A stretch of DNA of 64,000 nucleotides from a virus, in the IMG/VR virus record IMGVR_UViG_3300025000_000064, positions 59,606-123,605 of that record; one strand, written 5' to 3'. Each line of letters begins with the position of its first letter. Positions within the stretch are counted from its first letter, which is position 1. Shown here piece by piece: positions 1-62,477 of this stretch. Made by a program: the position numbers and the translations under genes. The notes under the pieces are model-generated. The model saw only the letters and a list, made by a program, of their open reading frames with translations, searched no databases and was not told the DNA's origin.

Positions 1-330
1 ATAATCATTTGTAATAAAACTATCATTAATAAGCAGAACTGAATCATATGAATATTCATATCTTATTATATAGTTTCTAGCCTTTTGCCATCCGCTAAAT
101 TCCCATTCATGATTATTACCTTTTATTTTTATTGTCTTAAATTTAGAAAAAATTTCATCAGCACAAATCCAATCATCTGGATAATAACATTCTTCACATT
201 TATTATCTATTTTTACAATTTCAATATTATAAAAGGGTTTTAATTTATTTAGATATATTTGTAATATATCCCATGAATAAGGATATTTATTATTATCATA
301 TTCAACATATAAAACACATATATTTTTCAT
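1..330 (-). CDS. Partial GT-A-like protein, third paralog of the WEFSG family (runs off the left edge; absent from the ORF track)
   Basis: Manual translation from ATG at 330: MKNICVLYVEYDNNKYPYSW...IVKIDNK...GNNHEWEFSGWQKA...SVLLINDSF. It has the same motifs as the two upstream paralogs and an AGGA RBS. Confidence 0.8.
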   Translation of the reverse strand, partial: MKNICVLYVEYDNNKYPYSWDILQIYLNKLKPFYNIEIVKIDNKCEECYYPDDWICADEIFSKFKTIKIKGNNHEWEFSGWQKARNYIIRYEYSYDSVLLINDSFITNDY

Positions 331-331
331 A

Positions 332-1057
332 TTATCCTATGTCCTCTGTTATTCTTGTATATAAAGATAATTCATTTAGCAACATCAAACTTTTCATCCT
401 GAAGAAATCCCACTCTTTTTCTATATTTATAGGGCTATGCCAATGCAATTGTAAGTTTCTTACAATATTGTTTTTTGCAACTGAATTAATAGGAGCGCCT
501 AATAATATGTATGGATAACTTGCATTTGAAGAGATGCATTTATCTATGAAATCAATATTGAGAGTTACCAGTGTTTTTATTTTATTTATAATATTTTTGG
601 ACAACATGAAACAATGCGTTCTCATGTATTTTTTTATATTATACTTATCAATTATTAGTTCATATGGTTCTGCATCTAATATATTACCAATAATTTTATC
701 ATTTTTTCTGCATTCATAAACACAGTTGTCGTTAATAATAACCGAAGGGCTATCATTTCCACCTGGGGCTAAAAATGAATCATTAACAAATAATATAGAA
801 CTATAATCATCGTTAATGGATTTTAAATATTCGATAACCTTTGTGTGACCAGAAAACTCCCAACAAGTATTATCTCCATCAATATATGTTATATTATCTT
901 TAATTATTGGATTGAATAAATTGCTAGACCTTTTATTGTCCACAACAATTATTTCAACATAATGATTTTTAATTTTTTTAAGATATTTTATAAGATATAA
1001 TAATGAGCTTGGATATTTTTCAGTATTATATTGTACAAAAGAAACAATTAATTTCAT
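332..1057 (-). CDS. Putative divergent GT-A/GT2-like glycosyltransferase (WEFSG paralog 2)
   Basis: IIVVDN, GDNTCWEFSG, ILFVNDSF and RTHCFMLSK motifs; collinear with the N-terminal part of 1068..2108. The function is inferred. Confidence 0.5.
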   Translation of the reverse strand: MKLIVSFVQYNTEKYPSSLLYLIKYLKKIKNHYVEIIVVDNKRSSNLFNPIIKDNITYIDGDNTCWEFSGHTKVIEYLKSINDDYSSILFVNDSFLAPGGNDSPSVIINDNCVYECRKNDKIIGNILDAEPYELIIDKYNIKKYMRTHCFMLSKNIINKIKTLVTLNIDFIDKCISSNASYPYILLGAPINSVAKNNIVRNLQLHWHSPINIEKEWDFFRMKSLMLLNELSLYTRITEDIG

Positions 1058-1067
1058 ATAATTTCCT

Positions 1068-2108
1068 TTAGTTATATAAAGATTCTATAGTTTTTATTTT
1101 TAGTAATTCTATTTGGCTCTTTATTGTATTGGGTTCAAATAGTGTATAAATAGCAAAATCATATTCTATATTTTTCTCAATAAATTCTTCTGGCGTATAA
1201 ATATTAATATCGTTTAATTTGCCTTTTGCTTTATTGTCCAGAAAAGCCACTATGTTTTTAGATAATAAATTACTTTCAATAAACATTTTTTTGACGCATG
1301 TTGATGCTCCAATGCATACTATTTTTTTATTATCTGGAATGCTGTTTATAATATCTTTTAATTCATATTCTGCTCTATTATATCCCAATATTCTCATTAT
1401 TCTGGTATATAGGGTTAATTCATTTAATAGCATTAAACTTTTCATTCTAAATAATTCCCAATTTTTTGATATGTCAAAAGAACTGTGCCAATTAGTTGTT
1501 AAATTATTAACAAGATTTCTTTTGACATTAATGCAAATTGGAGCGTCTTTCAAAAAATACATGTTATCTTTTTTATATAAATCAATGCATTTATCTACAA
1601 AATCAGCATCCACCGTAACTAATGAGCCTATTTTATCAACTACTAATTTAGATAACATAAAGCAATGAGTTCTCGTATATTTATTTACTAAATATTTACC
1701 TATTTTAAAATTTATTGCGGTATTGCAAAAATTACCAATAATACTATTATTTTCTACACAATTAAATACATTATTATCATTTATTATTGTAAGTGGTGAA
1801 TCATAACCGCTTGGGGCTAAAAATGAATCATTTGCGAATAAGATAGCATCATAATCAATATTTTTTTCTTTAAGATATTGTAAGCCTTTATCCCAACCGC
1901 TAAATTCCCAAACTGAATTATCTCCCGATATTGTAGTAACACCATTAAGATAACCACTCTCAGAACCTTCTTCATCTTTATTGTCTATGACAATTATTTT
2001 CACACTATTTTCTTTTATCTTGTTCAAATATTTCTGTAAATAAAATAAAGAATTTGGGTATTTTTTAGTATCATACTGCACAAAAAGAACAACTAATTTA
2101 TAATACAT
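1068..2108 (-). CDS. Putative GT-A/GT2-like glycosyltransferase (WEFSG paralog 1) with a C-terminal Rossmann-like extension
   Basis: IIVIDN, GDNSVWEFSGW, ILFANDSF and RTHCFMLSK; the C-terminal IVCIGAS...IVAFLDNK...IYTPEEF segment resembles small domains seen in glycan loci. Confidence 0.5.
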   Translation of the reverse strand: MYYKLVVLFVQYDTKKYPNSLFYLQKYLNKIKENSVKIIVIDNKDEEGSESGYLNGVTTISGDNSVWEFSGWDKGLQYLKEKNIDYDAILFANDSFLAPSGYDSPLTIINDNNVFNCVENNSIIGNFCNTAINFKIGKYLVNKYTRTHCFMLSKLVVDKIGSLVTVDADFVDKCIDLYKKDNMYFLKDAPICINVKRNLVNNLTTNWHSSFDISKNWELFRMKSLMLLNELTLYTRIMRILGYNRAEYELKDIINSIPDNKKIVCIGASTCVKKMFIESNLLSKNIVAFLDNKAKGKLNDINIYTPEEFIEKNIEYDFAIYTLFEPNTIKSQIELLKIKTIESLYN

Positions 2109-2110
2109 GC

Positions 2111-3043
2111 TTATTTATTTCCTTCTTTGTTTAATAATTCATTCCAAAATTTTAATATATCATTCTCTTCTATTTCTTTTGTATAATTTTGTTTTATGAA
2201 ATTGATATCCTCTTCTTCAATATAAAGTTCACACTTTATTACATGCTCTATTCTTTTAACGAAGTCTATTATATCTCCATGTTCAACAATATGACATAAA
2301 TCAAAATATTCTCTGCAACCCATACCTGTATATCCAATAACTGTACATCCGCAAGCCATAGCTTCAAGTGGAGGAGCTGCACATCCTTCATTTTTGCTGA
2401 ATGACAAGAATATCTCAGATTCTTGATATGTTTTTATTAACTCCTCTTCTGTCATATTTTCTATGGCAATAAATTTATAATCTTTTAATCTCCCCCTAAG
2501 TTTTAAAATAGATATTACTTGGTCAACATCCTGTTTGTTTTTTCTTGGCATATAACAGCATTGCTTTTTCTTTTCTACTATTGGAAAAAACTTGTTAAAA
2601 TCAATTGAGATATGCACTCTATGGATTTTTCTATCTAAAAACATTTCTAAATATTGTTTACTATCTTCCGAAACGACCATTATGCCAATAACGTCAGGAT
2701 TGTTATAGTTAAAAATAGTATTTTCGTTTATTGTTCCATATGGGGCAAATGTATTATAACAACTCTGATTGAAAATAACTTTTTTACATTTTGGTACAGT
2801 GTTAAATGCATGATGATTATATATTTCAGGAAAAACTACAATATCATCTTCTTTAATTACAGTTTTGTCATAGGTTATCTTCGTATTGTTTGGGAACCAG
2901 TTGCATCTAAATGCTTCTGTATCATCAAAATGTAAAACATATGCTTCTATGCCATTTTTATTAAGAATATCCACATGGTCATACAACTTTTTTATTCCTC
3001 CACATGGAACACTATTTTCAGGACATCTAAAGTAAACTACCAT
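2111..3043 (-). CDS. GT-B (GT4-like) glycosyltransferase
   Basis: N-terminal GGIKKLYDHVDIL and C-terminal EGCAAPPLEAMACG, the EX7E motif of GT4 enzymes. Confidence 0.85.
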   Translation of the reverse strand: MVVYFRCPENSVPCGGIKKLYDHVDILNKNGIEAYVLHFDDTEAFRCNWFPNNTKITYDKTVIKEDDIVVFPEIYNHHAFNTVPKCKKVIFNQSCYNTFAPYGTINENTIFNYNNPDVIGIMVVSEDSKQYLEMFLDRKIHRVHISIDFNKFFPIVEKKKQCCYMPRKNKQDVDQVISILKLRGRLKDYKFIAIENMTEEELIKTYQESEIFLSFSKNEGCAAPPLEAMACGCTVIGYTGMGCREYFDLCHIVEHGDIIDFVKRIEHVIKCELYIEEEDINFIKQNYTKEIEENDILKFWNELLNKEGNK

Positions 3044-3619
3044 CTATTTATCACCTATCACTATTATATAAAATATATTACCTTGAATCCATTCTTCTAT
3101 TATGCACTTGTTTGGGAAATTTTGCAACGCTTCTTCATAATATTGTTTAATTTCTTCTTTATTCAATGCAAACTTATGGAAGAGCGAAGGTTTATTTATA
3201 GGGACAGATATAATTGCCAAATCACTTTTCTCAATAATTTTATTTAATATTTTTTTTGATAAATCAATATCAATATGTTCTAAAAACTCAAAAGAAACAA
3301 TTGCATCATAATGTTCTGTTAAAAAATCAGGATTGGAACAATCATTTGTAAAATAATTTATATTATCTCTTTTATAATATTTATTAGCAAAACAAATTGC
3401 TTCTTCTGAAATATCATATGAATTAATAAAGTAATTAAGTTCAGACAATATAAATGACCCATAACCAATACCGCATCCAATGTCAGCTATTTTTAAATTA
3501 TTCTTTGGCAATAATTCTTTTATTTTATTTCTAGCAAAAGAATATCTTTCTAAATGTTTTTGTTCAACACCATCCAGTGTTTTACTTACTTGTCTTTCGC
3601 CTGTAAATTCTAAATCCAT
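3044..3619 (-). CDS. Class I SAM-dependent methyltransferase (glycan O-methyltransferase-like)
   Basis: FTGER...HLERY N-terminus, IADIGCGIGYG motif I, YDAIVSFEFLEHI. Start placed at 3619 because of a TAATG overlap with the upstream stop. Confidence 0.85.
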   Translation of the reverse strand: MDLEFTGERQVSKTLDGVEQKHLERYSFARNKIKELLPKNNLKIADIGCGIGYGSFILSELNYFINSYDISEEAICFANKYYKRDNINYFTNDCSNPDFLTEHYDAIVSFEFLEHIDIDLSKKILNKIIEKSDLAIISVPINKPSLFHKFALNKEEIKQYYEEALQNFPNKCIIEEWIQGNIFYIIVIGDK

Positions 3620-4296
3620 TATATAGCCCTCTTTTGAATAATACATATTCCGCTAGGGTCTTTATAGCTTGTTCTATTTTGTTCTAATGTATTTTTATTG
3701 CTTACATAATCGTTTATATTTATCATGCTTACTTCAGTATTTTTCTCTTTAAATTCTTCCAATGCTCTTTTTACACCACCTTGACCAGAAGCGTCACATC
3801 TCTTTGCTAGCTCAGAAGAATCATGTAGTATAATAAATCCACCATGCTGTAACATATCATAATAGATGTTTAATTCCTTTATTGTTTGTTCATACTCATG
3901 AGAGCTATCTATTACTATAAGATTAGGTCTGTTATTTTTACAAATATCTACAAATGATTCATCGGTAGAACTATATGTATATGTTTTTACATAATCTATT
4001 AGACCAAACTTCTTTACAAAGTTATCCGTTATTTCTGTATGAAATGGATTTATGTCTACTGATATGAATGAATTTTTTGTTTCACTTTGTCTTAAAATCA
4101 TTGCTATTATGATTGACGAATATCCTAAAAAGTGTCCTAATTGAACAATATTAGTTATATTGTTTGCCGATATTAGAGAAGCAATAAAGGATATAAATGG
4201 ATAGCCACACTCCCCCATCCAGCTTTTTTCTTTCATTACTTTGAAAAATTCATCTATATTTTTCTTTTCTTCTATTGATAAATAATTATATTTCAT
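3619..4296 (-). CDS. Class I SAM-dependent methyltransferase (Methyltransf_24-like)
   Basis: IVQLGHFLGYSS motif I, LIVIDSSHEYEQT, GGFIILHD; start after a GGAGG RBS. Confidence 0.8.
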   Translation of the reverse strand: MKYNYLSIEEKKNIDEFFKVMKEKSWMGECGYPFISFIASLISANNITNIVQLGHFLGYSSIIIAMILRQSETKNSFISVDINPFHTEITDNFVKKFGLIDYVKTYTYSSTDESFVDICKNNRPNLIVIDSSHEYEQTIKELNIYYDMLQHGGFIILHDSSELAKRCDASGQGGVKRALEEFKEKNTEVSMININDYVSNKNTLEQNRTSYKDPSGICIIQKRAI

Positions 4297-5485
4297 TTCT
4301 TCCCTCCGCTTTATCATTTTTAAAAGAAGATATTATGTCTTCTTTAATCCTTCTTCCTGCATTTCCATCAAAAAATGGAATATATTTCTTTATTGCACTC
4401 AACCTTTCTTGCTTTTTTATATCTTCACCTCTTTTAAACATTTCTATAAAATTTATCATATCTTCACAAGTGCTACCAGTATAATATGTATTTATTAATC
4501 CAGATATAGCATCTGTCATAGCCTCTATATTTTTCTTATTATACATATACAATATTGGCTTTTCTGTAACCGCCACCTCTACCATTATTGCAGACCTACT
4601 AACAATTATACAGTCTACATTTAAAATTCCTGGTCTATAGTCATCTTCTAAATACATATATAAATTATCAAAACTATTTATTTTTTTCTTTATTTCTTCA
4701 ATTTCTTGTTCGTTTAAAATATTATATTCTAAAATAATTTCAAAGAATTTTGGATGAGGCATAAATATAAAGAATAAATCTTTATGATTTTCTATTTCAT
4801 TTAAAAACTTTTTATATTCTTCAAAGTCTGGTGTCACATAATGAATTTTATCTGTATTTGGTATTGAAAATATCTTTGGAAAATGAACTTTCCATAATAC
4901 AATTTTTCTCCCATTTGCTTTTTGTTTAATATTTTCTGGCAATGGAAAATTATTTTTATTATATAGTCCATCAAACTTTGGATGACCTAATGCCCTTGTT
5001 ATTTCTGGCGATATATATTTATCATAATCTTTTTTAATTAATGGTGAAAATGTATATATTCTCCATGCATTCTGCGGAACACCTTTTAAAAAATGTGCGT
5101 TCACTGATTCAACTGTATTGGATATTTCTATTCCATAAGTTATGTATACAATTTTTATACCTTTGTTTTTTATGTAATCAGACCTTAGCTCTAGTGGTCT
5201 ATGTCCTTCATCATAAGGTGTTTGCATTATCCAAATATCAGGACAATCTTTATCTATATTATAATCCTTATATTCTATAAACGAAATATTATTTTTTTCT
5301 AAAAACACTCTTGCTGTTTTCATTTGACTTTTTTCACAAATTTCTTCATCAAATAAAACAATTTTTACATCAAGTCTATCATCTTTTATACACTCATTAT
5401 AGAATGAGTCCCATGATGCCCAGAACGAAGCAACCTGAAACAAAAATACAACTTTTATTTTTTTCTTATTATTTTGAAATAACAT
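4286..5485 (-). CDS. CDP-glycerol glycerophosphotransferase (TagF)-like GT-B transferase
   Basis: MQTPYD, YITYG, LGHPKFD, FIFMPHP and DCIIVSRSAIMVEVAVTEKPILY patterns. Confidence 0.7.
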   Translation of the reverse strand: MLFQNNKKKIKVVFLFQVASFWASWDSFYNECIKDDRLDVKIVLFDEEICEKSQMKTARVFLEKNNISFIEYKDYNIDKDCPDIWIMQTPYDEGHRPLELRSDYIKNKGIKIVYITYGIEISNTVESVNAHFLKGVPQNAWRIYTFSPLIKKDYDKYISPEITRALGHPKFDGLYNKNNFPLPENIKQKANGRKIVLWKVHFPKIFSIPNTDKIHYVTPDFEEYKKFLNEIENHKDLFFIFMPHPKFFEIILEYNILNEQEIEEIKKKINSFDNLYMYLEDDYRPGILNVDCIIVSRSAIMVEVAVTEKPILYMYNKKNIEAMTDAISGLINTYYTGSTCEDMINFIEMFKRGEDIKKQERLSAIKKYIPFFDGNAGRRIKEDIISSFKNDKAEGRNEI

Positions 5486-5525
5486 TTATTTTACAGTTCC
5501 TTATCGTATAAATAATATAATCAAT

Positions 5526-6086
5526 TTATGATTTTACATTTAATATGGCTTTCATTATTACATGAACCAATATCATATGTATGTCTTCCGAAATCTGCAT
5601 ATCGTCTATGTTTGCATTGACGGAGTGTTTACTAATTTGTTTTAATATTCCACCACCATATCCTGTTATTCCTATTGTTATGGCTCGCTTGAGATTAGCG
5701 TATTCAATTGCCTTTATTATATTCTCTGAATTACCGCTTCCAGAAATACCTATTACAACATCACCTTTATTTAAAAAATTCTTTAATTGGTCTTCAAATA
5801 TAGATTCATAACCAACATCATTTGCATAAGCTAACATAGTGGGAATATTATCATTTAAACAGATAACCTTAAACATTTTTTTATCTTTTTGTTTTGTACC
5901 TTTATTTATATCACAAGCAAAATGAGAAGCCGTTGAGGCACTTCCCCCATTCCCCATGATAAATATTTGTTTTTCATTATCTCTTGCTTCTAATAATATA
6001 TTTACAACTTTTTTTATTTCATTTTTATCAATATTATCTATTGTTTTCTTTAGTCTGTCAAAATAATTATCTATTGTTGTCATCAT
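5526..6086 (-). CDS. gmhA: Sedoheptulose-7-phosphate isomerase (SIS domain)
   Basis: IFIMGNGGSASTASHF, ANDVGY, GDVVIGISGSGNSENI, QISEDIH. Confidence 0.95.
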   Translation of the reverse strand: MMTTIDNYFDRLKKTIDNIDKNEIKKVVNILLEARDNEKQIFIMGNGGSASTASHFACDINKGTKQKDKKMFKVICLNDNIPTMLAYANDVGYESIFEDQLKNFLNKGDVVIGISGSGNSENIIKAIEYANLKRAITIGITGYGGGILKQISKHSVNANIDDMQISEDIHMILVHVIMKAILNVKS

Positions 6087-7032
6087 AAATTATACTTGCT
6101 CCTTTGTCTTCAAACTTAAAATCTACTTCTTTTAAATCTATTAAGCTTCTTCTCAATTGTTCTTGATTTTCCTCTTTTACATAAAGTAATAAGAATCCAC
6201 CTCCACCTGCACCTAGCAACTTGCCACCGTCTGCTCCATTTTTAATAGATAAATTATAATAATAATCTATCTCTGTATTGCTTATCTCTGAAGATAGTTC
6301 TTTTTTATACATCCAGCCTGTATGTAATACATCTCCAATTGAATCAATGTTTCCTACGCTCAATGCAGAATTTAACATTTTAGCTAAGTCAACCATTTTA
6401 CTTAAATTATTATGATTAATCTCATAGCCTTCTAACACTTTATTTGCAGACCTAACATTTCCCAAATAAAATAAAAGCAAGTTGTTTTCAAGTTTATTTT
6501 TATTTCTTTTATCAAGCTTTATACTATTTACAGTAACAGAATCATCTTGGTTAAATATTATATAGTTTAACCCTCCGTAAGCAGAGGCGTATTGGTCTTG
6601 TTTGCCAATGGGACACTTTAATTTATCTATTTCAATATCACAGGCTTTATCTGCTAAATATTCTTTATTACAGTGTTTTTTATTATATGTACTACAGAGG
6701 TTTGTTAACCCTACTGTGAATGCAGAAGAAGAACCCAATCCTGTGCCTGATGGAATATCTGCACTTGAATTAAAGTCGACGCCTTTTATATTGTATTCCT
6801 TAAAGGTTTCTCTGATTATATTGTGTTTTATTTTATCAACAGAACTTACTTTTTCAATTTCAGAATACTTAAGAAAATAATTATCCTTTTCAAAATAAGG
6901 ATGCATGGAAAGGTAAATGTATTTATTTATAGTAACAGATAAAACAGCTCCACCATATTCCTTATAGTGTTCTCTTAAATCACTACCGCCACCCGCAAAA
7001 CTTATTCTAAATGGAGTTCTTGAAATAATCAT
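6067..7032 (-). CDS. hddA: D-glycero-alpha-D-manno-heptose-7-phosphate kinase (GHMP family)
   Basis: SRTPFRISFAGGGSD, DIPSGTGLGSSSAF, IGKQDQYASAYGG, GGKLLGAGGGGF; adjacent to gmhA. Confidence 0.92.
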   Translation of the reverse strand: MIISRTPFRISFAGGGSDLREHYKEYGGAVLSVTINKYIYLSMHPYFEKDNYFLKYSEIEKVSSVDKIKHNIIRETFKEYNIKGVDFNSSADIPSGTGLGSSSAFTVGLTNLCSTYNKKHCNKEYLADKACDIEIDKLKCPIGKQDQYASAYGGLNYIIFNQDDSVTVNSIKLDKRNKNKLENNLLLFYLGNVRSANKVLEGYEINHNNLSKMVDLAKMLNSALSVGNIDSIGDVLHTGWMYKKELSSEISNTEIDYYYNLSIKNGADGGKLLGAGGGGFLLLYVKEENQEQLRRSLIDLKEVDFKFEDKGASIIYDDNNR

Positions 7033-7714
7033 GCCTGACTCCCTCTAATTTTTCTAAAGTTCCCAAATCTTTTAATATTTCGTCTGTTTGATAAGCTATA
7101 ATTGAAACACCATTATTCAACATTCTTGGAAACACATCTTTGCCAAAATCTTGTGGCTCTGTAGAATCTATAAAATGAAGTATTTTATCTGATAATATAT
7201 AAACCGCTGCATTATTTAATAAATTACAATAATTTACCGCATGATTTCTTGGTTTTGGATAAAATGCTGTTACTTTATTATTATAAACCCGCAATACGTC
7301 TTCTTCTTCTGGACAAATAGGTTGTTGAACAATTATTGTAGCAAACGCTCTAATATGTTCATAAAACTCAATAAATTTATTAATATCAAAATTTAAATAT
7401 AAATCACCGTAAAATACCATAAATCTATCTTGTAATATTGATTTAGCAGAATATAAAGCTCCTGCTGTTCCCATTGGTTTTAATTCTTGTATGATAGTTA
7501 AATCTATACCATTTGGCATATTATCTTTAAAATAATCAACAATAACTTCGGATAAATGCCCTGCAATTATTACAATATCTGTTATTCCATGTCTTATAGC
7601 CAAGTCTATTTGATGATGTATAATGGGCTTATCACCCAATAACACCATAGGTTTTGGAATATCTTTCAAGCCAAGTCTTGTGCCTTTGCCACCAGCTATA
7701 ATTACAAGTTGCAT
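7007..7714 (-). CDS. hddC: Heptose-1-phosphate guanylyltransferase-like nucleotidyltransferase
   Basis: IIAGGKGTRL...PKPM, PMGTAGAL, FYGD, NAAVY, DLGT; located next to hddA and gmhA. Confidence 0.8.
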   Translation of the reverse strand: MQLVIIAGGKGTRLGLKDIPKPMVLLGDKPIIHHQIDLAIRHGITDIVIIAGHLSEVIVDYFKDNMPNGIDLTIIQELKPMGTAGALYSAKSILQDRFMVFYGDLYLNFDINKFIEFYEHIRAFATIIVQQPICPEEEDVLRVYNNKVTAFYPKPRNHAVNYCNLLNNAAVYILSDKILHFIDSTEPQDFGKDVFPRMLNNGVSIIAYQTDEILKDLGTLEKLEGVRHDYFKNSI

Positions 7715-8646
7715 TTGATTGCCTCCATTATTGCCTGATTAGATGTCATACTTGCTCTCCAACCCAGATTATGTATTTTATCTAAGCAATAATCAAATTC
7801 TGATACATCTCCAATCCAACCTTTATTTCCACCTGTGTATTGTACCTTTGTTATATTTTGTAGATTCATTGCCTTTATAACCATTTCTGCAATCTCTTTT
7901 ACATAAGTTCTTGTATTATTTCCTATATTATATAAATTTATCTTTTCATTTGTATTATTACAAACATATAATATTGCATCTATAAGTTCATCAACATATA
8001 AATATGGCTTATGTTGATTTCCATCTCCTAAAACCGTTAATGTATTTGGGTTTTCTTTTAATTTATTTATAAAATCATATATGATTCCATGTGTTGCTCT
8101 TGGTCCAACGACATTTGGAAATCTAAATATCCACGCTTGCATATCGTAGTTCTCAACAAAGCTTGATATAAATGCCTCTGAGGCTAATTTGGAAGCACCG
8201 TAATGTGAAACTGGAAGTAATGGTCCAGAATCTTCAGACAGTTTGCCTTTTAATTCTCCATAAACCGCTGAAGTAGATGCAAATACAATCTTTTTTACAT
8301 TGTATTCCCTCATGGTATTTAATATATTAAATGTTGTATCAAATGTATTACATAAATCAATATTCGGGTTTTCATTGCTTTTAGAAATATCAGAATTGGC
8401 AACCAAATGAAACACAGTATCTATATTTTCTTTTTCAAATATTTGATTAAGTATTTCCGAATAAGTAATGTTTGATTCATAAAATGAAAAATTAGGATTA
8501 TCAAAATTATGTTCAATATTATTTATTCTTCCATTTGATAAATTATCAACGACAATTACTCTATTGTCTTGAGCTAATAGGACATCAACTAAATGGCTTC
8601 CTATAAAACCTGCACCGCCTGTTATTAATATGTTTTTAGTTTTCAT
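7702..8646 (-). CDS. NAD-dependent NDP-sugar epimerase/dehydratase (extended SDR)
   Basis: LITGGAGFIGSH, FASTSAVYG, YGASK, FRFPNVVG. Confidence 0.92.
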   Translation of the reverse strand: MKTKNILITGGAGFIGSHLVDVLLAQDNRVIVVDNLSNGRINNIEHNFDNPNFSFYESNITYSEILNQIFEKENIDTVFHLVANSDISKSNENPNIDLCNTFDTTFNILNTMREYNVKKIVFASTSAVYGELKGKLSEDSGPLLPVSHYGASKLASEAFISSFVENYDMQAWIFRFPNVVGPRATHGIIYDFINKLKENPNTLTVLGDGNQHKPYLYVDELIDAILYVCNNTNEKINLYNIGNNTRTYVKEIAEMVIKAMNLQNITKVQYTGGNKGWIGDVSEFDYCLDKIHNLGWRASMTSNQAIMEAIKCNL

Positions 8647-8667
8647 TTTGCTCCTTTATATATAAAG

Positions 8668-8795
8668 GATGGCTTGCGGTGAGATTTGCACTCACTCCTC
8701 CCTGAACTAAATCAAAGATTCTATTCAGATATACGTTATCCACATATCATCCTTTGGACATGTCGAAGATGTCACTTAAACTACGCCAGCCATCT
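8668..8795 (-). ncRNA. 127-nt tRNA-like structured RNA, leader of the glycan operon
   Basis: Closing helix GATGGCT-G-GCG / CGC-A-AGCCATC, T-arm GTGAG-TGCAAAT-CTCAC and three internal hairpins; starts about 6 nt after a consensus -10 box. Confidence 0.6.
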
Positions 8796-8801
8796 ATTTA
8801 T

Positions 8802-8830
8802 ATTCTATATTATTTTTGTATGATTGTCAA
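8802..8830 (-). promoter_or_regulatory. Sigma70-type promoter for the leader RNA and glycan operon
   Basis: TTGACA-17 bp-TAGAAT on the minus strand. Confidence 0.85.
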
Positions 8831-9123
8831 TATATGCTTTATAATCAATCTTGGGATTATTTTTTTTAATATCTATTTTATTTAATATAACCATGATAGG
8901 AATGCTTATTGGGAATACTGCAATAATTAAAATTAATAATATTATTTCAGAGATAATCTGAAACATCTCTTTTATGGCTCTGAATATATTAGGAATATTG
9001 CCAATTGTTAATCGTTTTAATTCATTCAAACACAACAATATAAAATAATTATTATATTTATTATAATTACAGTTGCTTAATTTGCTATCTTCGTAATATA
9101 ATTTTCTTTTACCTTTTCTCACT

Positions 9124-9435
9124 TTAATCATCATCTTTCTCCCATGCAACTGCAACTTTTATTTTTTTATATTTAATTGGAATGCCAAGAAATCTTTTAT
9201 CAACAATTGTTTTTTCATAATATCTTTGCTCAAAATCTTTGCAATTATTATCTTTATTTCTAAAATTGCATGAATCCATTGTCTTGTCTATTCTTAAAGC
9301 AGAATTTGATACTTTGACAGAATTAGGATGATGACAGTCGGCATCCTCTCCAGTATAAATGTGCCTTTCGTCTCCAATATTAAAACTCTGGATATGCTCA
9401 CAATTCATGCAATATCTTTTTTTATTTTTGTTCAT
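9124..9435 (-). CDS. Small phage hypothetical protein, Cys-containing
   Basis: Member of a run of overlapping, translationally coupled small ORFs; CMNC and CHH/CNF/CKD motifs. Confidence 0.6.
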   Translation of the reverse strand: MNKNKKRYCMNCEHIQSFNIGDERHIYTGEDADCHHPNSVKVSNSALRIDKTMDSCNFRNKDNNCKDFEQRYYEKTIVDKRFLGIPIKYKKIKVAVAWEKDDD

Positions 9436-9644
9436 TTATTATCTCCTATAATCCTTGATTCTGGCATAATATCTGGAATAATATCTCCTTTTTTAAATAA
9501 GTGTCTTACGTCATGACAAGCCAAATCGTCTTCTGAAAATGTTGCCTCTGGATTATAATTGACACTTTTACATGTTTTACATGGACCATCTATAAATGGA
9601 CAATTTGTTAAACGGTATCTGCATTTATGTGATTTGTTATTCAT
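9432..9644 (-). CDS. Small Cys-rich hypothetical protein
   Basis: Overlaps both neighbours; CRY..CPF..CKTC. Confidence 0.55.
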   Translation of the reverse strand: MNNKSHKCRYRLTNCPFIDGPCKTCKSVNYNPEATFSEDDLACHDVRHLFKKGDIIPDIMPESRIIGDNK

Positions 9645-26109: not shown

Positions 26110-26886
26110 TTAATAATTTTTCCATAAACTTTCAACTGCATTAGAACCACTATTGGGAGATTTAAAATCAATTCTATTATATTTTAAGGATAACTCATCA
26201 TATATTTTATGATTATAGCCACTTAATAAGAATTTCCCTTTTAAATTTAATAATATATTAACTAATTTATAATGCTCTTCATCTGTCATTTCTACTTCGT
26301 AATTTTGATTACTTTTTCTTGTACTGCGAACATAAGGAGGGTCTAAATAAAAGAAAACATCTTCTCTGTCATACTTATCTATCAAATCAAAAATATTTAA
26401 ATTGTCAATCAAAACAGTAGATAATCTTTCATGGAAAGACGGCAATGCTTCTATTGATGATAAATAATCACTTGTGGAACGACACATTTTTCTTCTGACT
26501 AATAGTGTTCTACTAAAGCCACCAACTCCATTAAAAGAACTCCTTGATACATAGAAAAAATAATATGCTCTATCTTCAATAGATAAATCGTTTCTTTTTA
26601 ATAATTCTTTAAATTCTTCCCTTATTGTTTTTGAATAATAAGTTAACTCTAACCTATGTTTTAAATTTTTAAATTTATTTTTATTTGATAATACTTTAAA
26701 TAAACTATAAACATTATTGCCTAAATCGTTATATATTTCTATGCCAGATTGTTCTTTTTTAAATAAAACAGAAGCTCCTCCGCCAAAACCTTCAATATAT
26801 GTGATGAATTCTTTTGGAAAATTATTTATTATAATATCTGACATAAAATTTTTCCCGCCATAATATTTTATAAGTTTAGAAACCAT
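26110..26886 (-). CDS. DNA adenine methyltransferase (D12/Dam family)
   Basis: YYGGK, YIEGFGGGASV, YND and FYLDPPY. Confidence 0.92.
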   Translation of the reverse strand: MVSKLIKYYGGKNFMSDIIINNFPKEFITYIEGFGGGASVLFKKEQSGIEIYNDLGNNVYSLFKVLSNKNKFKNLKHRLELTYYSKTIREEFKELLKRNDLSIEDRAYYFFYVSRSSFNGVGGFSRTLLVRRKMCRSTSDYLSSIEALPSFHERLSTVLIDNLNIFDLIDKYDREDVFFYLDPPYVRSTRKSNQNYEVEMTDEEHYKLVNILLNLKGKFLLSGYNHKIYDELSLKYNRIDFKSPNSGSNAVESLWKNY

Positions 26887-26904
26887 TTTGTTATTTCCTA
26901 TAAT

Positions 26905-26941
26905 AAAATAAAAAGGGATATACAATTGGCGAGCATATCCC
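26905..26941 (-). terminator. Intrinsic terminator upstream of the methylase and dnaB
   Basis: GGGATATGC-9 nt-GTATATCCC followed by TTTTATTTT. Confidence 0.7.
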
Positions 26942-28624: not shown

Positions 28625-28992
28625 TCTAATTAGAATAACACTAATTTAGAATAAAATATATAGATTAATACTTAACTTACAACATAACTTAATACATAGA
28701 ATAATACTTAACTATATTCTTAACTAAATAATAACTTAATATTTAACTATATTCTAATTAACTTACTACATATTAACTTACTTCTATTAACTGACTACAA
28801 TTTAACTTACTTCAATTAACTTATATCTAATTAGAATATTACAATATAACTTAATACATATTAACTAAATACAATAACTTATTACTTAACTTACTACTAA
28901 CTAAATACTTATTAGACTAATATATTAACTTAATACTAATTAGAATAATACTATATAGTATTATATATAAATGTTACCTATACAGGTAACAT
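28625..28992. repeat. Low-complexity iteron-like array with palindromes; candidate replication origin
   Basis: About 17 same-strand TAACT units at 11-15 bp spacing, 5 TAGAAT, then the palindrome AATACTATATAGTATT (28947-28962) and the hairpin ATGTTACCT-ATAC-AGGTAACAT (28971-28992). It lies between divergent replication operons. Confidence 0.6.
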
Positions 28993-29185
28993 ATAATTAT
29001 AGCATGTTTTTAGAAAAAGTTCCTAAAATTTTATTTATTTTAAAATAATCAAATTAACCCAATCCAAAAATAATTAAAATATGAGAATATTCCAAGGAGC
29101 GTAGCCCTCTTACTTAAAATTAGTAAGGGTTATGGAGGATAGTTGTTGTAACAATTATTAGTATAACAATTTAATTAAATATATA

Positions 29186-35605: not shown

Positions 35606-35812
35606 ATGAATTATATTAAAAAAATATTATTGATAGCTAAAATATTCACACCCAATAAAAATATAGAATTAAAAGAGCTTTTTATGACAACGCTGATAAC
35701 ATCTTTAACAAAACAAAATCCAAATATTGCTAAAATAGAAGCACATATAACTGTTGCAATTTTAGATGAAGTTTTTGAGCAAGTATTAGAATATGCAGAA
35801 GGCAAACAATAA
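35606..35812 (+). CDS. Small hypothetical protein
   Basis: Coupled to the methylase gene. Confidence 0.5.
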   Translation: MNYIKKILLIAKIFTPNKNIELKELFMTTLITSLTKQNPNIAKIEAHITVAILDEVFEQVLEYAEGKQ

Positions 35813-36684
35813 TGAATAATAAAATTAATGCAATGCTTTTGTTTGATGGAATATCATGTTCCCAAGTTTCTTTTAAGAAACTTGGGATAGTTACCGACAA
35901 ATGCTATGCTTCCGAAATAAAGAAACATGCTATAACTGTAACACAACATCATTTTCCTGATACTATTCAGATAGGAGATATAAATAATATTGATTTTAAT
36001 TTATATAAAAATATATTTATATTAATGGGAGGAAGCCCATGTCAAGACTTAAGTAGATTAAAAGTCGGAGAAGATAGAAAAGGATTACAGGGCGAAAAAT
36101 CCTCTTTGTTTTTTAAATACATAGAGGCCTTACATACAATAAAGCCAAAATACTTTTTATTAGAAAATGTTATAATGGATAAAGACAATGAAGACATCAT
36201 TAGTGATTTACTAGGCGTTAAACCCATAAGGATAAATTCAAATTTAGTAAGTTTCCAAAATAGAGACAGGTTATATTGGACAAATATTCCAAATGTTACA
36301 ATTCCAAAAGATAAAAATATATCATTTCAAGATTTTAAAGATACCGATTATGAGTATTGTAAAAAATTTAAAGTCAACAAAACTCCAAGTAGAATAAAAA
36401 TGTATGAAAAGCAATGCCCAAATGTAACATATAGAGATAAAATTAATTGCTTGACATGTAAGCAAGATAGACGGAACAATAGTGGATTAATAGATTTTGA
36501 GGATTTTTGTAGATATTTGACAACTAGAGAACTTGAGTTAGCACAGACTATTCCCATTGGATATACAAGCATGTTAACAAAAACACAATCTGAAAATGTA
36601 CTTGGTGATTGTTGGACTGTTGATGTAATAACTCATATATTAAAGTGTATTCCAGAATTAAAGGATATAATAAATGAACAATAA
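35812..36684 (+). CDS. DNA (cytosine-5) methyltransferase
   Basis: LFDGISC, GDI, GGSPCQD, LLENV and QNRDRLY. Confidence 0.92.
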   Translation: MNNKINAMLLFDGISCSQVSFKKLGIVTDKCYASEIKKHAITVTQHHFPDTIQIGDINNIDFNLYKNIFILMGGSPCQDLSRLKVGEDRKGLQGEKSSLFFKYIEALHTIKPKYFLLENVIMDKDNEDIISDLLGVKPIRINSNLVSFQNRDRLYWTNIPNVTIPKDKNISFQDFKDTDYEYCKKFKVNKTPSRIKMYEKQCPNVTYRDKINCLTCKQDRRNNSGLIDFEDFCRYLTTRELELAQTIPIGYTSMLTKTQSENVLGDCWTVDVITHILKCIPELKDIINEQ

Positions 36685-40745: not shown

Positions 40746-40899
40746 TAAGATTATATCATTAGAAGCAAGAATTATAAACCTAGAAAGAATAGTGAACAAT
40801 TTAGACAACAGAACATTTAGCCAGATAACGCTTGGTCCTTTGCCAGATTTGGATAGATATAAGATATTTGGTGTTGATAAAATTAAGGAAATACAATGA
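40717..40899 (+). CDS. Small coiled-coil protein
   Basis: Overlaps both neighbours. Confidence 0.5.
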   Translation: MKITKEEMNDKIISLEARIINLERIVNNLDNRTFSQITLGPLPDLDRYKIFGVDKIKEIQ

Positions 40900-41975
40900 T
40901 AAAAAAGGACATACTTATCGTCACAGATATTTTATTCTGGAAGATGATGCGTGGCAATAACAACAGAATATCGTCATATTGTAATTATTTATCATTGGAA
41001 AACAATGTCGATATATTCATGTTAAATAATGATGAAAAAGATTATTCATTAAAGAACTGTTATTATTATGATGACTTTTTAAGTGACGATTGCGAGAATA
41101 TAAAAGAAGAACATGTTAGTGCCTTAAATAGTTTTATAAAAAAGAAATTATATGCAGATAAAAAATACGAAATTGTTATTTTCCCTTATATTTGGAGTGA
41201 CTATTTAGCTAAAGACAAGCATGACTTATATGAATATAAAACAATAGTGGACACAAACGATTGCTTATCCAAAAGGTCTGAATCGTTTAGAGAATATGGT
41301 GTAAATTATAGAAGACCATATACACTAGAGGAGGAAAAAGAAAGTTTAAAAGGCTTTGATTATATCATGGCTATTTGCGATGAAGAAAAATTACTATTTG
41401 AAGAAATGGGGTTTAGTAATGTTTTTACCTCTAAATATTTTTACGAGAAACCAAATGACAATTTAAATAAATTAGGATTTATAGCCTCAAATAATTTGTC
41501 ATCTTTTGAATCAATTAAATGGTTTTACAAGAATGTATTTAAGAATAAACTAGATAGCAACTATTATTTATACATATGTGGTGATTTATCTAAAGCCCCA
41601 GAAACCAGAAGGATGTTTCTTGGTAAAAAAAATATTGTTTTATATGCTCCAATATTTAATATTAGTGATTTTTATAGAATGGTTGATATTGCCATAAACC
41701 CTTGCATGTTCGGTTCGGGTTTGAAGATAAAGAATATCGAAGCAATATCTTTTGAGAAGCCAATAATTAGCAACAAACAAGGGTTGCAAGGCATGATAGA
41801 AGAAAAGAAATATGGTATCATAGAGGAAGCCAATACTGTTGGAGAGTGGTTAGGGAAGATAAAATATTTATCTAATAAAATAAATTATGGTATTGCTATA
41901 TACAAAATACAGGGATATAATCATAAAAATTCTGCTGATAAAATTTATAGAGAGTTAAATAATGTTATTGGATAA
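40896..41975 (+). CDS. GT-B (GT4-like) glycosyltransferase
   Basis: GNNNRI and DIAINPCMFGSGLKIKNIEAI...PIIS. Confidence 0.85.
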   Translation: MIKKDILIVTDILFWKMMRGNNNRISSYCNYLSLENNVDIFMLNNDEKDYSLKNCYYYDDFLSDDCENIKEEHVSALNSFIKKKLYADKKYEIVIFPYIWSDYLAKDKHDLYEYKTIVDTNDCLSKRSESFREYGVNYRRPYTLEEEKESLKGFDYIMAICDEEKLLFEEMGFSNVFTSKYFYEKPNDNLNKLGFIASNNLSSFESIKWFYKNVFKNKLDSNYYLYICGDLSKAPETRRMFLGKKNIVLYAPIFNISDFYRMVDIAINPCMFGSGLKIKNIEAISFEKPIISNKQGLQGMIEEKKYGIIEEANTVGEWLGKIKYLSNKINYGIAIYKIQGYNHKNSADKIYRELNNVIG

Positions 41976-42690
41976 AAACTTAACCATAGACAATACTGGG
42001 ATAATTTTTGGGTGTGGTGCATCTATAGAGTCAATAAAAGAATATATTCCACTTATCCAAAAAAAATGGCAATGTGGTTACCTTAACCGTTTTCCAGAAT
42101 TTTATCCAACGCAGAATAAAGGGCAGGATTATTGGTTATGGGCTGATTATCGCTTTTACAGCGATAATCTTTGTGACAGAAGCCATTTAATGAAAGAAGA
42201 ATACTTAGAAAAATCTTTACAAATAAAAGACAAAAGAGAATTTTTAAAAGACTATAAAATAATAACAACTCCAGAAATAAATAATAGGGAAATAAACAAA
42301 GAATATATCAAGGTTACAAATGGAGAAGAAATACACCTAGAGGGATATATTAAACCCCATTATTTGTTTAATGCAGTTGTGGATGATATACAGTTAGAAA
42401 TGAATAATAAATTAATGATGTACAAAACAAGTTTGCACGCTGCTATTAATTTTGCAATAATAAAAAAATATAAAAATGTAATATTAATTGGTGTTGATTT
42501 AGACAAAAAATGGAGGCACTTTTATGATAACATAATAGACCCTTCCATCTTAAAAAACCATAAAGATGGGAAAAGATATGACATCATGATTGATAAATTA
42601 TATCAATGTAAAGACTATATCAATATATATAAAATTAATAAATTAAATAATCTTAGTTTTGAATATTTGAATATTAGTATATTATTATGA
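41962..42690 (+). CDS. DUF115/Maf-like (GT42-related fold) glycosylation protein
   Basis: IIFGCGASI, LNR, SLHAAINFA and NVILIGVDL...HFY. Confidence 0.6.
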   Translation: MLLDKNLTIDNTGIIFGCGASIESIKEYIPLIQKKWQCGYLNRFPEFYPTQNKGQDYWLWADYRFYSDNLCDRSHLMKEEYLEKSLQIKDKREFLKDYKIITTPEINNREINKEYIKVTNGEEIHLEGYIKPHYLFNAVVDDIQLEMNNKLMMYKTSLHAAINFAIIKKYKNVILIGVDLDKKWRHFYDNIIDPSILKNHKDGKRYDIMIDKLYQCKDYINIYKINKLNNLSFEYLNISILL

Positions 42691-42865: not shown

Positions 42866-44014
42866 ATGAAAATACATAGAAGTAGCAAATGTTATTTTAA
42901 TAAATGGCTAACTACCAAGAAAAAACAAGAATTAAAAGAAATTTTGGTTGAACACTCTCGTATTGTTAATTATTTTATTCGAAAATATGAAAACGACATT
43001 CCGCAGAAAAAGAAAAATGAATTACTTTTAGCTAATTATATACAAGAATGTATTTCTGATACAAAAACATTCTTTACTGCCAGAATGGTTAAAAACTGTT
43101 TTAGTGAAGGCTATGGAATGATACAGTCTTCTAAATCACTATCAACTTCTATGGGTAAAAAATATGTTTCTCCTAAGCATTATGGGAAAAGGATGATTCT
43201 TTCTGAAACTATTGCCACACACGATATAGCTAGGCAGACTAAGTTATTTGATTTCAATTTAACTTTAGGTTGCGTAAGAACCGATAGGAAGAAACATAAA
43301 ATTTCAATACCTTTAAAAAGACACATACAATTTAATAAATGGAGTATTCTCGGAAAATTATCTAAATCAGTAGTTATTACAGACAAATATGTAATATTCT
43401 TTTTTAAAGTAGAGACTGGCAAGAAGAAAACGGAAGGTGAGTTGGTAGGGTTCGATTTTGGCTTAAAGAGATTAGGTACTCTCTCTAATGGAGACGTTAT
43501 TGGAAAAAATATTAATAAATTATTGTTGGAATTAAACATAAAGAAAAGATGTAGTAAGGCGTATTACAGAAAGAAGGAAGAAATAAGGGAGTATATCAAC
43601 AAAGAAATTAAAGATATAAATTTCAACGATAAACAACTGATAGTTGTTGAAAAATTAAAGAATATGAAATATAAGATGAAAGAGAGAGGGCGACTCTCTA
43701 AAAGTATTCGCTCTGTTTTCTATAACTTAAGTTATAGGCAAGTTCTACAGAGAATACAAATGTTGTGTGAAGAGAACCGTGTCTCTTTTCGTTCAATTTC
43801 TCCATTCTGGACTTCCTGCGAGTGCTTAAGTTGCGGACACATAGAAAAGAAGAATCGTTTATCACAGGAATCTTTTGTTTGTCTGAAGTGTGGTCATTCA
43901 GATAATGCAGATTCAAATGCGAGCAAAGTAATACTGAAACGGTTCATCACAGGAAAGTACGGTTTCTGTTACCAACAAGATAATTTAAAGGAATATTATA
44001 TTTCTGCAAATTAA
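42866..44014 (+). mobile_element. tnpB: IS200/IS605-family TnpB RNA-guided nuclease, no TnpA
   Basis: RuvC triad VGFDFG / IVVEKL / DNADSNA and zinc finger CLSCG...CLKCG. Confidence 0.9.
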
Positions 44015-44022: not shown

Positions 44023-44220
44023 GTAGATTTGAATAAGGAGTGGAATCATTTTTATGATAATATTCCAGAGGGAATAGTTTTAAAAGAACACAAAACTGGA
44101 AAAAGATACGATATAATGATTGATAAATTATATAAATTTAAAAAACACATTAATATATACAAGGTTTGTGATAATTTTTTAGATTTTGAATTGATTGATA
44201 TTAATCTATTAATATCTTAG
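44023..44220 (+). pseudogene. 3' remnant of the second DUF115/Maf-like copy
   Basis: VDLNKEWNHFYDNI...HKTGKRYDIMIDKLY, compared with VDLDKKWRHFYDNI...HKDGKRYDIMIDKLY. Confidence 0.8.
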
Positions 44221-54687: not shown

Positions 54688-55302
54688 TTAAGTAATTTTA
54701 TCAAAGTTAGTAAGTAAAACTCCAGAAGGTAAAGCAACCTGTAAAAATTCTGACATATATTGTCTTTGATTATCTGTTAATTCTTGATTTGAATAATAAA
54801 TAGAAACTCCACAAGGAAAAACACTTGAATAATTTACTGTTTCTGAATTTGTTAATATTTTTACAATATTTATTATTTCTTCAGGGGTGCAACTTCCTAT
54901 ATTTCTTTTAATTTTTGCCTTAATTGCATTTCTATAAACAATATCTGTTCTTGTTTCCCCTACTGAGCCACCAAGTACATTTGAGTCATACCAAAAGCCT
55001 TCATTAAACCCAGAACCCAATGTATTATCAGAAAAAGCAAAGAATCCAATATCTAAATTAACTGTATATTTTCTTGGCTCTCCGACTATTTCACCAACAT
55101 GGTCAAGGTTTATTCCTTCAGCTTCATTTATAGTTCTTAAATATCTCAAATCATAAATTGCTTGATATATTAAATCTAACTCTTCTGAAATAGCTTTTAA
55201 ATACATTTCAAAGTTTGGTTGATTAAAATAGTTTTGAGGAATACTTTGTATCTTTTCAAATACAGAGCTTGGAATAAAAATATCTTTAATATCTTGCATC
55301 AT
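54688..55302 (-). CDS. Baseplate wedge protein (DUF2612-like)
   Basis: AEGINLDHVGEIVG.PR...FGF-like and YRNAIKAKI. Confidence 0.75.
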   Translation of the reverse strand: MMQDIKDIFIPSSVFEKIQSIPQNYFNQPNFEMYLKAISEELDLIYQAIYDLRYLRTINEAEGINLDHVGEIVGEPRKYTVNLDIGFFAFSDNTLGSGFNEGFWYDSNVLGGSVGETRTDIVYRNAIKAKIKRNIGSCTPEEIINIVKILTNSETVNYSSVFPCGVSIYYSNQELTDNQRQYMSEFLQVALPSGVLLTNFDKIT

Positions 55303-55314
55303 ATCTTTAATCCT

Positions 55315-56481: not shown

Positions 56482-56503
56482 ATTTAATACCTCTTATAAT
56501 ATA

Positions 56504-56866
56504 TTATAAATTAAAATTTAATCCGTTTGCTGTTGCTGTTCCATAAATTGTATTAATTTTGAAACTGATTGACAAAACTCTTGTTTGGTTATTAAAATCA
56601 TAAGAAAACTCAATTACTGATTTAACGCCTGGTGTTTTTAAAATTCTATCTTTTATTGCTTCTGCTGCAATATATTTATTCTTTTTGCCCAAAACATATC
56701 TGAAATAATCCATTCCTGCTTCGGGATATATGCTAAAATTACCAACAGCAAAACTTAATCTGCTTTGTATATGTTGTAATATAGCATCTACGCCATCTAT
56801 CCAGACTGGCATTCCAGTTGTGAGGTCAATATCCCCATCCGATGTTAATTTAACCTGTAGTGTCAT
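56504..56866 (-). CDS. Baseplate wedge protein (gp25/gp46, DUF2634-like)
   Basis: QHIQSRL...G.DY...IL.TPGV..V..F...NNQTRVLSISF...T.YG. Confidence 0.75.
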   Translation of the reverse strand: MTLQVKLTSDGDIDLTTGMPVWIDGVDAILQHIQSRLSFAVGNFSIYPEAGMDYFRYVLGKKNKYIAAEAIKDRILKTPGVKSVIEFSYDFNNQTRVLSISFKINTIYGTATANGLNFNL

Positions 56867-56868
56867 TA

Positions 56869-57570: not shown

Positions 57571-57592
57571 ATTTTCCTCGCTTTATTATATA

Positions 57593-57621
57593 TTGTATTT
57601 ATTTTTAAAATATGTTATAAT
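57593..57621 (+). promoter_or_regulatory. Extended -10 promoter of the antisense HNH gene
   Basis: TTGTAT-17 bp-TATAAT with TGn. Confidence 0.65.
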
Positions 57622-57656
57622 TTTATTATGTTAAAATTTATTATAAAGGTTTATGA

Positions 57657-59287: not shown

Positions 59288-59308
59288 TAAATAAACCTAT
59301 TAATATTA

Positions 59309-62476: not shown

Positions 62477-62477
62477 A

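Follow-up and report, generated by a model that had tools for sequence, protein, structure and literature searches.

The established GDP-heptose route uses four enzymes, GmhA, HddA, GmhB, and HddC, and the capsule cluster of Campylobacter jejuni lacks GmhB and borrows it from the lipopolysaccharide (LPS) genes (PMC10680097). Heptose genes are also annotated in the cultured phages Cr30 of Caulobacter (epimerase-GT2-HddA-GmhA) and Bellamy of Synechococcus (kinase-nucleotidyltransferase-epimerases-glycosyltransferase). A heptose gene cassette is described here from an uncultured phage, IMG/VR virus record IMGVR_UViG_3300025000_000064, which is 123,605 bp in length. The window, meaning the whole stretch of DNA that was analyzed, is 64,000 nucleotides long and covers bases 59606 to 123605 of this record. 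The cassette is 11.2 kb in length with approximately 15 linked genes, and runs on the minus strand from window position 8646 past window base 1 to genome position 57019. Judged by homology, it very probably makes an activated heptose and transfers it.

Cr30 and Bellamy are likewise virulent myoviruses, and they carry an HddA-type kinase beside GmhA or a nucleotidyltransferase (NTase), an epimerase, and a glycosyltransferase (GT), all of putative function. Their cassettes are much smaller than the one described here and are without a TagF-like enzyme, methyltransferases, or the set of GT-A paralogs. They are 31-35% identical to the present phage, and their branches in the HddA tree are very long. 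HddA-type kinases are found in unannotated faecal phage contigs as well (30-38% identity).

Virus-encoded glycosylation of the virion is known from chlorovirus PBCV-1 and from the fibrils of mimivirus, and virion glycosylation in mycobacteriophages has reportedly been described by Freeman et al. 2023, as cited in PMC12801897. Such viruses encode soluble glycosyltransferases and no exporter, to which the giant viruses add sugar-nucleotide synthesis and sugar methyltransferases. The present phage differs from them in the predicted type of sugar and in the placement of the cassette away from the structural genes. Phage heptose pathways had already been recognized from annotated genes in Cr30 and cyanophages. 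Distinctive here are the stand-alone GT-B domain, a GT-A family that no Pfam model covers, the pair of methyltransferases, a bacterial parent system that can be traced, and evidence of exchange between phages.

Enzymes encoded by the cassette

The preliminary description read the region from 8646 to 1 as a single co-oriented and tightly coupled operon. Pfam and NCBIfam matches of the minus-strand open reading frames (ORFs) agree with its gene order, which is a short-chain dehydrogenase/reductase (SDR), an NTP-transferase, HddA, GmhA, a TagF-like enzyme, two methyltransferases, a GT4, and the GT-A-like genes (Table 1). The coupling is also borne out, as neighboring genes overlap by 1-32 nucleotides or lie 0-40 nucleotides apart, all on the minus strand. 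The operon does not end at window base 1, however, and continues 2.6 kb to the left.

Homologs of three of the four enzymes of the GDP-heptose route are encoded within this one operon, and a tailoring SDR follows the pathway. All of the phage proteins fall below the NCBIfam equivalog cutoffs, and the genome is viral. The GmhA homolog has TIGR00441 as its best family, with 105.9 bits against a cutoff of 209, and is linked to HddA in 24 or more bacterial loci. The similarity of the HddA homolog is specific to heptokinases, with PDB matches to 3k85, 4usm (WcbL), and 4n3o (C. jejuni HddA) at E values of 1e-38 to 1e-33, versus 1e-15 for galactokinase. The top PDB matches of the NTase are a UTP-glucose-1-phosphate uridylyltransferase (5e-20) and GDP-mannose pyrophosphorylases (1e-19), and the match to HddC (6jq8) covers residues 3-119 only, the N-terminal half. 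The best PDB match of the SDR is 8RDG/8RDH (E value 1.5e-75), with a conserved YxxxK motif. This is the GDP-sugar 4-epimerase PhGal4E_1, on which a subgroup of promiscuous GDP-sugar 4-epimerases was founded (PMC12171764). Tailoring in C. jejuni is performed by a trio of the Cj1427 dehydrogenase, a cupin epimerase, and a reductase, whereas the phage SDR is a relative of the GalE-type GDP-sugar 4-epimerases.

No GmhB was found in six-frame translations of the phage or of L005, a contig of a related phage, using a hidden Markov model (HMM) of the HAD domain that is fused to the bacterial NTases. The only HAD protein of the phage is of PNKP type (L004:14537-15031, L004 being the flanking part of the genome). 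It was considered as a substitute for GmhB and was rejected because it is unrelated in sequence. Dependence on the host for this step is plausible, since the C. jejuni capsule cluster likewise has its GmhB outside the cluster and borrows it.

By homology to GmhA, HddA, and HddC, the cassette has the nearly complete heptose line, with transferases and methyltransferases, that the preliminary description saw in it. What stands is a line to an NDP-heptose; its naming of GDP-heptose goes further, as the NTase matches UTP and GDP enzymes alike. We infer GDP as the nucleotide because the nearest solved relative of the SDR is a GDP-sugar 4-epimerase and because the NTase matches include GDP-mannose pyrophosphorylases. 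A product epimerized at C4 is likewise predicted. In the proposed path, GmhA, by homology, isomerizes sedoheptulose-7-phosphate and the HddA-type kinase forms heptose-1,7-bisphosphate. The host would supply the missing 7-phosphatase step of GmhB. Again by homology, the short HddC-like transferase activates the heptose-1-phosphate, with GDP as the likely nucleotide, and the SDR, by its subgroup, can invert C4. The product would be a GDP-D-glycero-heptose, possibly in the talo configuration.

The gene after gmhA encodes a GT-B enzyme that stands alone and belongs structurally with TagF and WecB. Its match to PF04464 is confined to the C-terminal half and scores 20.4 bits against a gathering cutoff of 22.1. 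The AlphaFold2 (AF2) model (pLDDT 91.6) scores Z 23-25 to TagF, to TarL, and to Bcs3 and Cps3D, which are capsule polymerases similar to TagF, and aligns approximately 325 residues with TagF 3l7i/3l7l at Z 24.6-25.1 and a root-mean-square deviation of 3.5. The UDP-GlcNAc 2-epimerases score Z 25-27, which is a tie with these TagF scores, and ordinary GT-B transferases score 19.6 or less. The label of a TagF-like enzyme given earlier is therefore apt for the GT-B fold, which is of TagF type, and less so for the family, since the Pfam cutoff is missed and the WecB epimerases are structurally as close. The TagF family and the phage enzyme share HP and D/S-rich motifs in the donor-binding half. H131 and H244-P245 are invariant in the phage enzyme's family and may, as read from the sequence, correspond to the catalytic histidines of TagF. 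No CTP_transf_like (TagD) gene and no CDP-glycerol or CDP-ribitol synthase was found in the phage. The donor is presumably GDP-heptose, and the enzyme is probably a heptosyl or heptose-phosphate transferase.

The GT-B protein has 174 homologs with 37-58% identity, nearly all of them longer, and the closest outside of phages (P0002 and P0003) are 58% identical. The bacterial homologs, without exception, are proteins of 502-1159 amino acids (aa) that end in the TagF-like domain, and in many of them one or two GT2 domains precede it. The phage enzyme is this C-terminal domain alone. The domain is provisionally read as a transferase or polymerase module, and not as an epimerase, because of this fusion behind GT2 domains. 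It is unlikely that the gene instead encodes an NDP-heptose 2-epimerase, which together with the 4-epimerase would yield a galacto-configured heptose, a rarer donor, and leave one transferase fewer. UDP-GlcNAc 2-epimerases are the best structural matches, slightly above TagF at Z 24-25, many bacterial homologs have precomputed Epimerase_2 matches, and polymers of D-glycero-D-galacto-heptose are reported from Eubacterium saburreum (Lachnospiraceae). Set against these points is the domain's place behind one or two GT2 domains in bacterial proteins of 874-1159 aa, which is the architecture of a polymerizing transferase. An hhalign alignment with Escherichia coli WecB pairs GT-B residues 225-386 with WecB residues 227-371 (probability 86%) and leaves the N-terminal half of WecB, with its catalytic acids, unaligned. 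The mechanism of WecB, moreover, relies on a 2-acetamido sugar.

Next in the operon are two methyltransferases dependent on S-adenosylmethionine (SAM), of which the CmcI type has no match in L005, and a GT4. The three GT-A-fold paralogs that follow share a 240-residue domain with 391 homologs in an exhaustive search. No Pfam match (E ≤ 0.01), to RgpF PF05045 or any other family, was found in the 70 family members examined. The model of paralog 1 scores Z 9-10.6 over 150-170 residues to ArnC, GtrB, BcsA, TarP, and WrtF, in support, at the level of the modeled fold, of the three GT-A-like genes proposed earlier. Because nucleotidyltransferases, IspD among them, reach the same scores, the comparison establishes the GT-A fold and leaves glycosyltransferase activity putative. 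The sole link to RgpF is a resemblance of paralog 1 in language-model (Atlas) features (0.94). The family is present in 12 viral contigs, either fused to a GT92/GT2 domain or inside glycosyltransferase arrays, and its HMM finds no member in the bacterial heptose loci.

Together, the TagF/WecB-class GT-B, the GT4, the three GT-A-fold paralogs, and the terminal GT2 would build a heptose-containing oligosaccharide or polysaccharide in the cytoplasm. Other sugars would be drawn from host pools, and the two methyltransferases would O-methylate the glycan. None of the cassette proteins has a transmembrane helix, and the whole phage encodes no multipass membrane protein; it therefore has no flippase, polymerase, permease, or initiating transferase.

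Upstream of the SDR gene is the consensus promoter noted earlier, which matches better than any other site of its intergenic gap. Over the region as a whole, promoter-like matches are not above chance (81 versus 78 in shuffles), so it is the position of this site and its closeness to consensus that speak for it. No Rfam family was found in window positions 1-9600 (E ≤ 0.1). To the left of the window, the order is the rest of the third GT-A paralog, a 54-nucleotide gap, DUF488, a 47-aa ORF, the 227-aa protein, and the GT2. The 54-nucleotide gap holds a second promoter-like site, TTGACA-17-CATAAT.

Table 1. Features of the cassette and its upstream region. Positions are those of the window unless prefixed.
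Feature	Position	Strand	Evidence or remark
Sigma-70-type promoter, TTGACA-17-TAGAAT	8802..8830	-	11/12 positions match; best site in intergenic gap
Leader, 155 nt, strong AAAGGAG ribosome-binding site before ATG at 8646	8647..8801	-	Sequence
SDR NDP-sugar 4-epimerase, 314 aa	7702..8646	-	Pfam Epimerase 1e-54
HddC-like sugar-1-phosphate nucleotidylyltransferase, 235 aa, without the HAD domain of bacterial counterparts	7007..7714	-	NTP_transferase 9e-27
HddA-type heptokinase (GHMP kinase)	6067..7032	-	NCBIfam HddA NF049969 1.4e-42, best family, below equivalog cutoff
GmhA sedoheptulose-7-phosphate isomerase (SIS), 186 aa	5526..6086	-	SIS_2 8e-19; TIGR00441 gmhA 1.9e-30
Stand-alone GT-B enzyme, TagF/WecB structural class, 399 aa	4286..5485	-	Pfam Glyphos_transf 2.7e-4, below cutoff
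CmcI/rhamnosyl-O-methyltransferase-type SAM methyltransferase, 232 aa	3619..4317	-	Methyltransf_24 3e-12; RMNT_CmcI 6e-11
Class I SAM methyltransferase, 200 aa	3044..3646	-	Methyltransf_25/11/23, 1e-9 to 1e-10; 77% identical in L005
GT4 (GT-B) glycosyltransferase, 310 aa	2111..3043	-	Glycos_transf_1 1.9e-10; PHROG glycosyltransferase 3.6e-11
GT-A-fold paralog 1, 346 aa, N-terminal domain 1-244 and small C-terminal domain	1068..2108	-	AF2 pLDDT 86.9
GT-A-fold paralog 2, 241 aa	332..1057	-	54% identical to paralog 1; family HMM 1e-80
GT-A-fold paralog 3, 266 aa	1..330, crosses window edge; full L004:19135-19935	-	30-31% identical to paralogs 1 and 2; HMM 3e-71
DUF488 protein ("active N3a subclade")	L004:18691-19080 = genome 58691-59080		Between GT-A paralogs and terminal GT2
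Unknown protein, 227 aa	L004:17863-18546		No Pfam, PHROG, or Atlas lead
GT2 glycosyltransferase	L004:17019-17855		Terminal cassette gene

Phage context, exchange, and bacterial relatives

The record (approximately 124 kb, GC 28%) is rated complete by CheckV ("100% complete"), and its composition is uniform along its length. It encodes a tail sheath, a portal, a major head protein, a tape-measure protein, a baseplate hub that includes an M23 peptidase, and a large DNA polymerase, and is on this basis a myovirus. The phage is taken to be virulent. No integrase, resolvase, tyrosine or serine recombinase, or other lysogeny gene was found in the phage genome, nor were any tRNAs. The structural genes are located at genome 1-22 kb and the cassette is in the early/middle half of the genome. 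Extension to the left, which had been suggested as a check of phage context, continues with ordinary phage genes. Beyond the GT2 there is a 124-nucleotide gap, followed by small phage ORFs, an MT-A70 DNA methyltransferase, the HAD phosphatase of PNKP type, and extended runs of very small early genes. Small phage ORFs flank the cassette on both sides, as described earlier. Because phage genes resume to the left of the cassette, it is not a host capsule locus abutting a prophage; the uniform composition and the avoidance of GATC within the cassette likewise rule out such a locus.

The sequence GATC is not present in the cassette (0 observed versus 25.5 expected), and occurs once in the rest of the genome (1 versus 283; whole genome, 1 versus 309). 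The homologous bacterial loci have a normal count of 2483 versus 2408 expected. The cassette also matches the rest of the genome in GC (26.9% versus 28.2%) and in GC at third codon positions (0.19 versus 0.21). The long residence that had been proposed from the lack of GATC is thus upheld, since composition and GATC avoidance match the genome while the bacterial loci do not avoid GATC.

When IMG/VR and JGI metagenomes were scanned with the GT-B protein, G001 was the only further carrier, and tblastn of this protein and megablast of the cassette region gave no match among cultured phages. The G001/L005 contig, 51.8 kb in length, is a fragment from a related phage, and the DNA polymerases of the two phages share 40% identity. 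Its cassette is on the other strand, at a different site, inside the replication module. The cassette proteins are 63-91% identical between the two phages, versus 34-59% for shared backbone proteins. Identical residues also have identical codons more often in the NTase (0.90) and the GT-B (0.84) than in the backbone (0.58-0.65), with 0.50-0.58 expected from codon usage. By the higher protein identity, the other site, and the higher codon identity, at least part of the cassette was exchanged between phage lineages after those lineages split. The two phage sequences group together in the HddA tree, with an SH-aLRT support of 99 for their clade and a long stem below it. Support is only 88 at the following split, between Bacillota/Treponema and Cr30, which is drawn open, and no donor can be named.

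Sequencing runs with the region are groundwater metagenomes of one study only, and contigs from these runs span the whole cassette. One run contains a second allele of the GT-B gene (window 4505-5370), approximately 89% identical and of comparable depth, which makes the cassette polymorphic in its natural population.

A scan of one genome per species with the GT-B family identified 43 bacterial loci, mostly in Bacillota (Paenibacillus, Lachnospiraceae, Clostridium), with some in Treponema, Bacteroidales, and Nitratireductor. Approximately 28 of the 43 have HddA, SDR, NTase::HAD, and GmhA within 10 kb, with 45-55% identity to the phage proteins. The NTase orthologs are NTase::HAD fusions of 434-440 aa. 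Neighboring genes are an ABC transporter (ABC_tran and ABC2_membrane), several GT2s, an acyltransferase, and methyltransferases. In these loci (L008-L050), enzymes sharing a C2185-like N-terminal domain also occur beside the HddA-SDR-NTase::HAD-GmhA genes and the GT2/GT2/TagF-like multidomain proteins. This module with its ABC transporter is conserved, mostly in Bacillota, and apparently undescribed; it probably makes a heptose-containing wall polysaccharide. The phage shares the HddA, SDR, NTase, GmhA, and TagF/WecB-like GT-B families with these loci, and has methyltransferases alongside as they do. In contrast, it is without the ABC transporter, the HAD phosphatase fused to the NTase, the GT2 and C2185-like N-terminal domains, and the acyltransferase. 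The gene order also differs, and the phage adds the GT-A family that has no Pfam match. The cassette core, which is the four pathway genes and the GT-B domain, probably derives from polysaccharide loci that depend on an ABC transporter, a kind common among Bacillota. The phage version would have shed the exporter, the phosphatase fused to the NTase, and the GT2/docking domains at the N terminus, and it appears to move as a module from one phage lineage to another.

Candidate acceptors

The virion, the host surface, and DNA had all been offered as targets in the preliminary description, and the evidence counts against DNA while leaving virion and host surface undivided. By analogy, the acceptor is tentatively placed on the virion proteins of the phage itself, which would carry a sugar coat as in mycobacteriophages, chloroviruses, and mimiviruses. 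This cytoplasmic acceptor is favored because a full donor pathway, six transferases, and two methyltransferases are encoded without an exporter, a flippase, or an initiating phosphoglycosyltransferase. It is favored also because the phage GT-B is without N-terminal domains and because the GT-A family is found in viral glycosyltransferase fusions and arrays. The soluble, exporter-free set appears closer to virus-encoded virion glycosylation than to seroconversion modules of 1-3 genes. Several findings weigh on the other side. The cassette is surrounded by early/middle and replication genes and does not adjoin the capsid or tail genes, and its counterpart in the relative is embedded in the replication module. 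Neither the major head protein nor the sheath protein is extended by a C-terminal tail, and a scan of the virion proteins for Ser/Thr tracts gave no convincing tract. The enzyme classes present (TagF-like, RgpF-like, GT2, GT4) normally act on lipid-linked wall polymers, the missing GmhB makes the pathway host-dependent, and no RNA run is among the sequencing runs that contain the region.

Remodeling of the host envelope is a somewhat doubtful alternative that draws on part of the same evidence. The enzymes would act at the membrane on undecaprenyl-linked intermediates of wall polysaccharide or teichoic-like polymers, and a host ABC transporter would export a methyl-capped heptose polymer. The receptor would then be masked, which would give superinfection exclusion and fewer progeny lost on debris. 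The closest relatives of the core genes in ABC-transporter-dependent polysaccharide loci, the enzyme classes typical of lipid-linked polymers, and an early/middle position with a sigma-70-type promoter that fits early host takeover are all in keeping with this. A host-envelope role has also been favored for cyanophages with many wall-synthesis genes, which are discussed in papers without functional tests (PMC12801897). On the other hand, the phage is without genes for an initiating transferase, a flippase, an exporter, or any membrane protein at all, and its GT-B is without the N-terminal domains of the bacterial polymerases. Known surface-conversion modules are those of temperate phages and have 1-3 genes, not 15, and this phage has no lysogeny genes. 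It has neither the recombinase nor the GtrA/GtrC-type multipass membrane protein looked for as marks of gtrABC/O-acetylase serotype conversion. Transfer of the activated heptose onto a modified DNA base, where it would block restriction, is very improbable. The cassette does lie in the replication/nucleotide-metabolism half of the genome, as the relative's lies within its replication module. However, no thymidylate-synthase-like dNMP hydroxymethylase that could supply the attachment point was found (no PF00303 match in the genome). Strong avoidance of GATC, GGCC, CCGG, CGCG, ACGT, and TCGA, together with three DNA methyltransferases, is the strategy of a DNA that is exposed to restriction and not modified in bulk. 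Six transferases and two O-methyltransferases also far exceed the needs of known DNA glycosylation. The remainder of the estimate, after virion, host envelope, and DNA, falls to other acceptors.

A more specific form of the virion acceptor is quite unlikely. Here, the GT-B with GDP-heptose and the GT-A paralogs would polymerize a methylated heptose or heptose-phosphate chain, similar to teichoic acid, directly onto virion proteins in the cytoplasm. If true, this would be a virus-made "capsule" on the phage particle, encoded by a cassette that is traded among phages.

Other genome features and significance

The three DNA methyltransferases are a Dam-like D12-class adenine methyltransferase (window 26110-26925, minus strand), in a genome with a single GATC (genome 14610), a C5 cytosine methyltransferase (window 35812-36684), and the MT-A70 enzyme (L004:15032-15646). 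A GT4-type glycosyltransferase outside of the cassette (window 40896-41975, plus strand) precedes gene 41962-42690, and the homolog of this gene in the relative phage directly follows that phage's cassette. Gene 41962-42690 is separated from a 63-aa copy of its own C terminus (44029-44220) by a TnpB-like gene of the IS605 OrfB type (window 42866-44014). Homologs of the TnpB-like gene are 60-79% identical.

Both ends of the record carry syntenic, diverged tail/baseplate modules (window 54688-63749 and genome 1-10615, L002), with nine gene pairs of 27-53% amino-acid identity that include two tape-measure genes. Genome 1-282 matches 113557-113838 with 92% identity. The contig may wrap a permuted genome of approximately 113.5 kb, joining two variants of the tail module, or else the phage has two real baseplate sets. 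The CheckV completeness is to be read with care because of this duplication. A 410-nucleotide non-coding repeat is present at both strand-switch zones (window 28636-29029 and genome 26098-26481, L003), in copies that are 81% identical. The window copy coincides with a sign change in GC skew, and the repeat may be an origin or a regulatory element. Pfam searches of ten structural-region proteins gave no endolysin and no wall-binding domain.

Phage heptose pathways recur, and the use of the sugar by phages has not yet been demonstrated. The present cassette is one of the fullest versions, with donor synthesis, a 4-epimerase, six putative transferases, two methyltransferases, and no exporter. A practical weakness is that both phage and host are uncultured. 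The cassette offers concrete enzymes, namely a GT-B domain that bacteria have only in fused form and a GT-A family that has 391 homologs but lacks a Pfam model. It also sharpens the question of whether phages with such pathways coat the virion or remodel the surface of the host.

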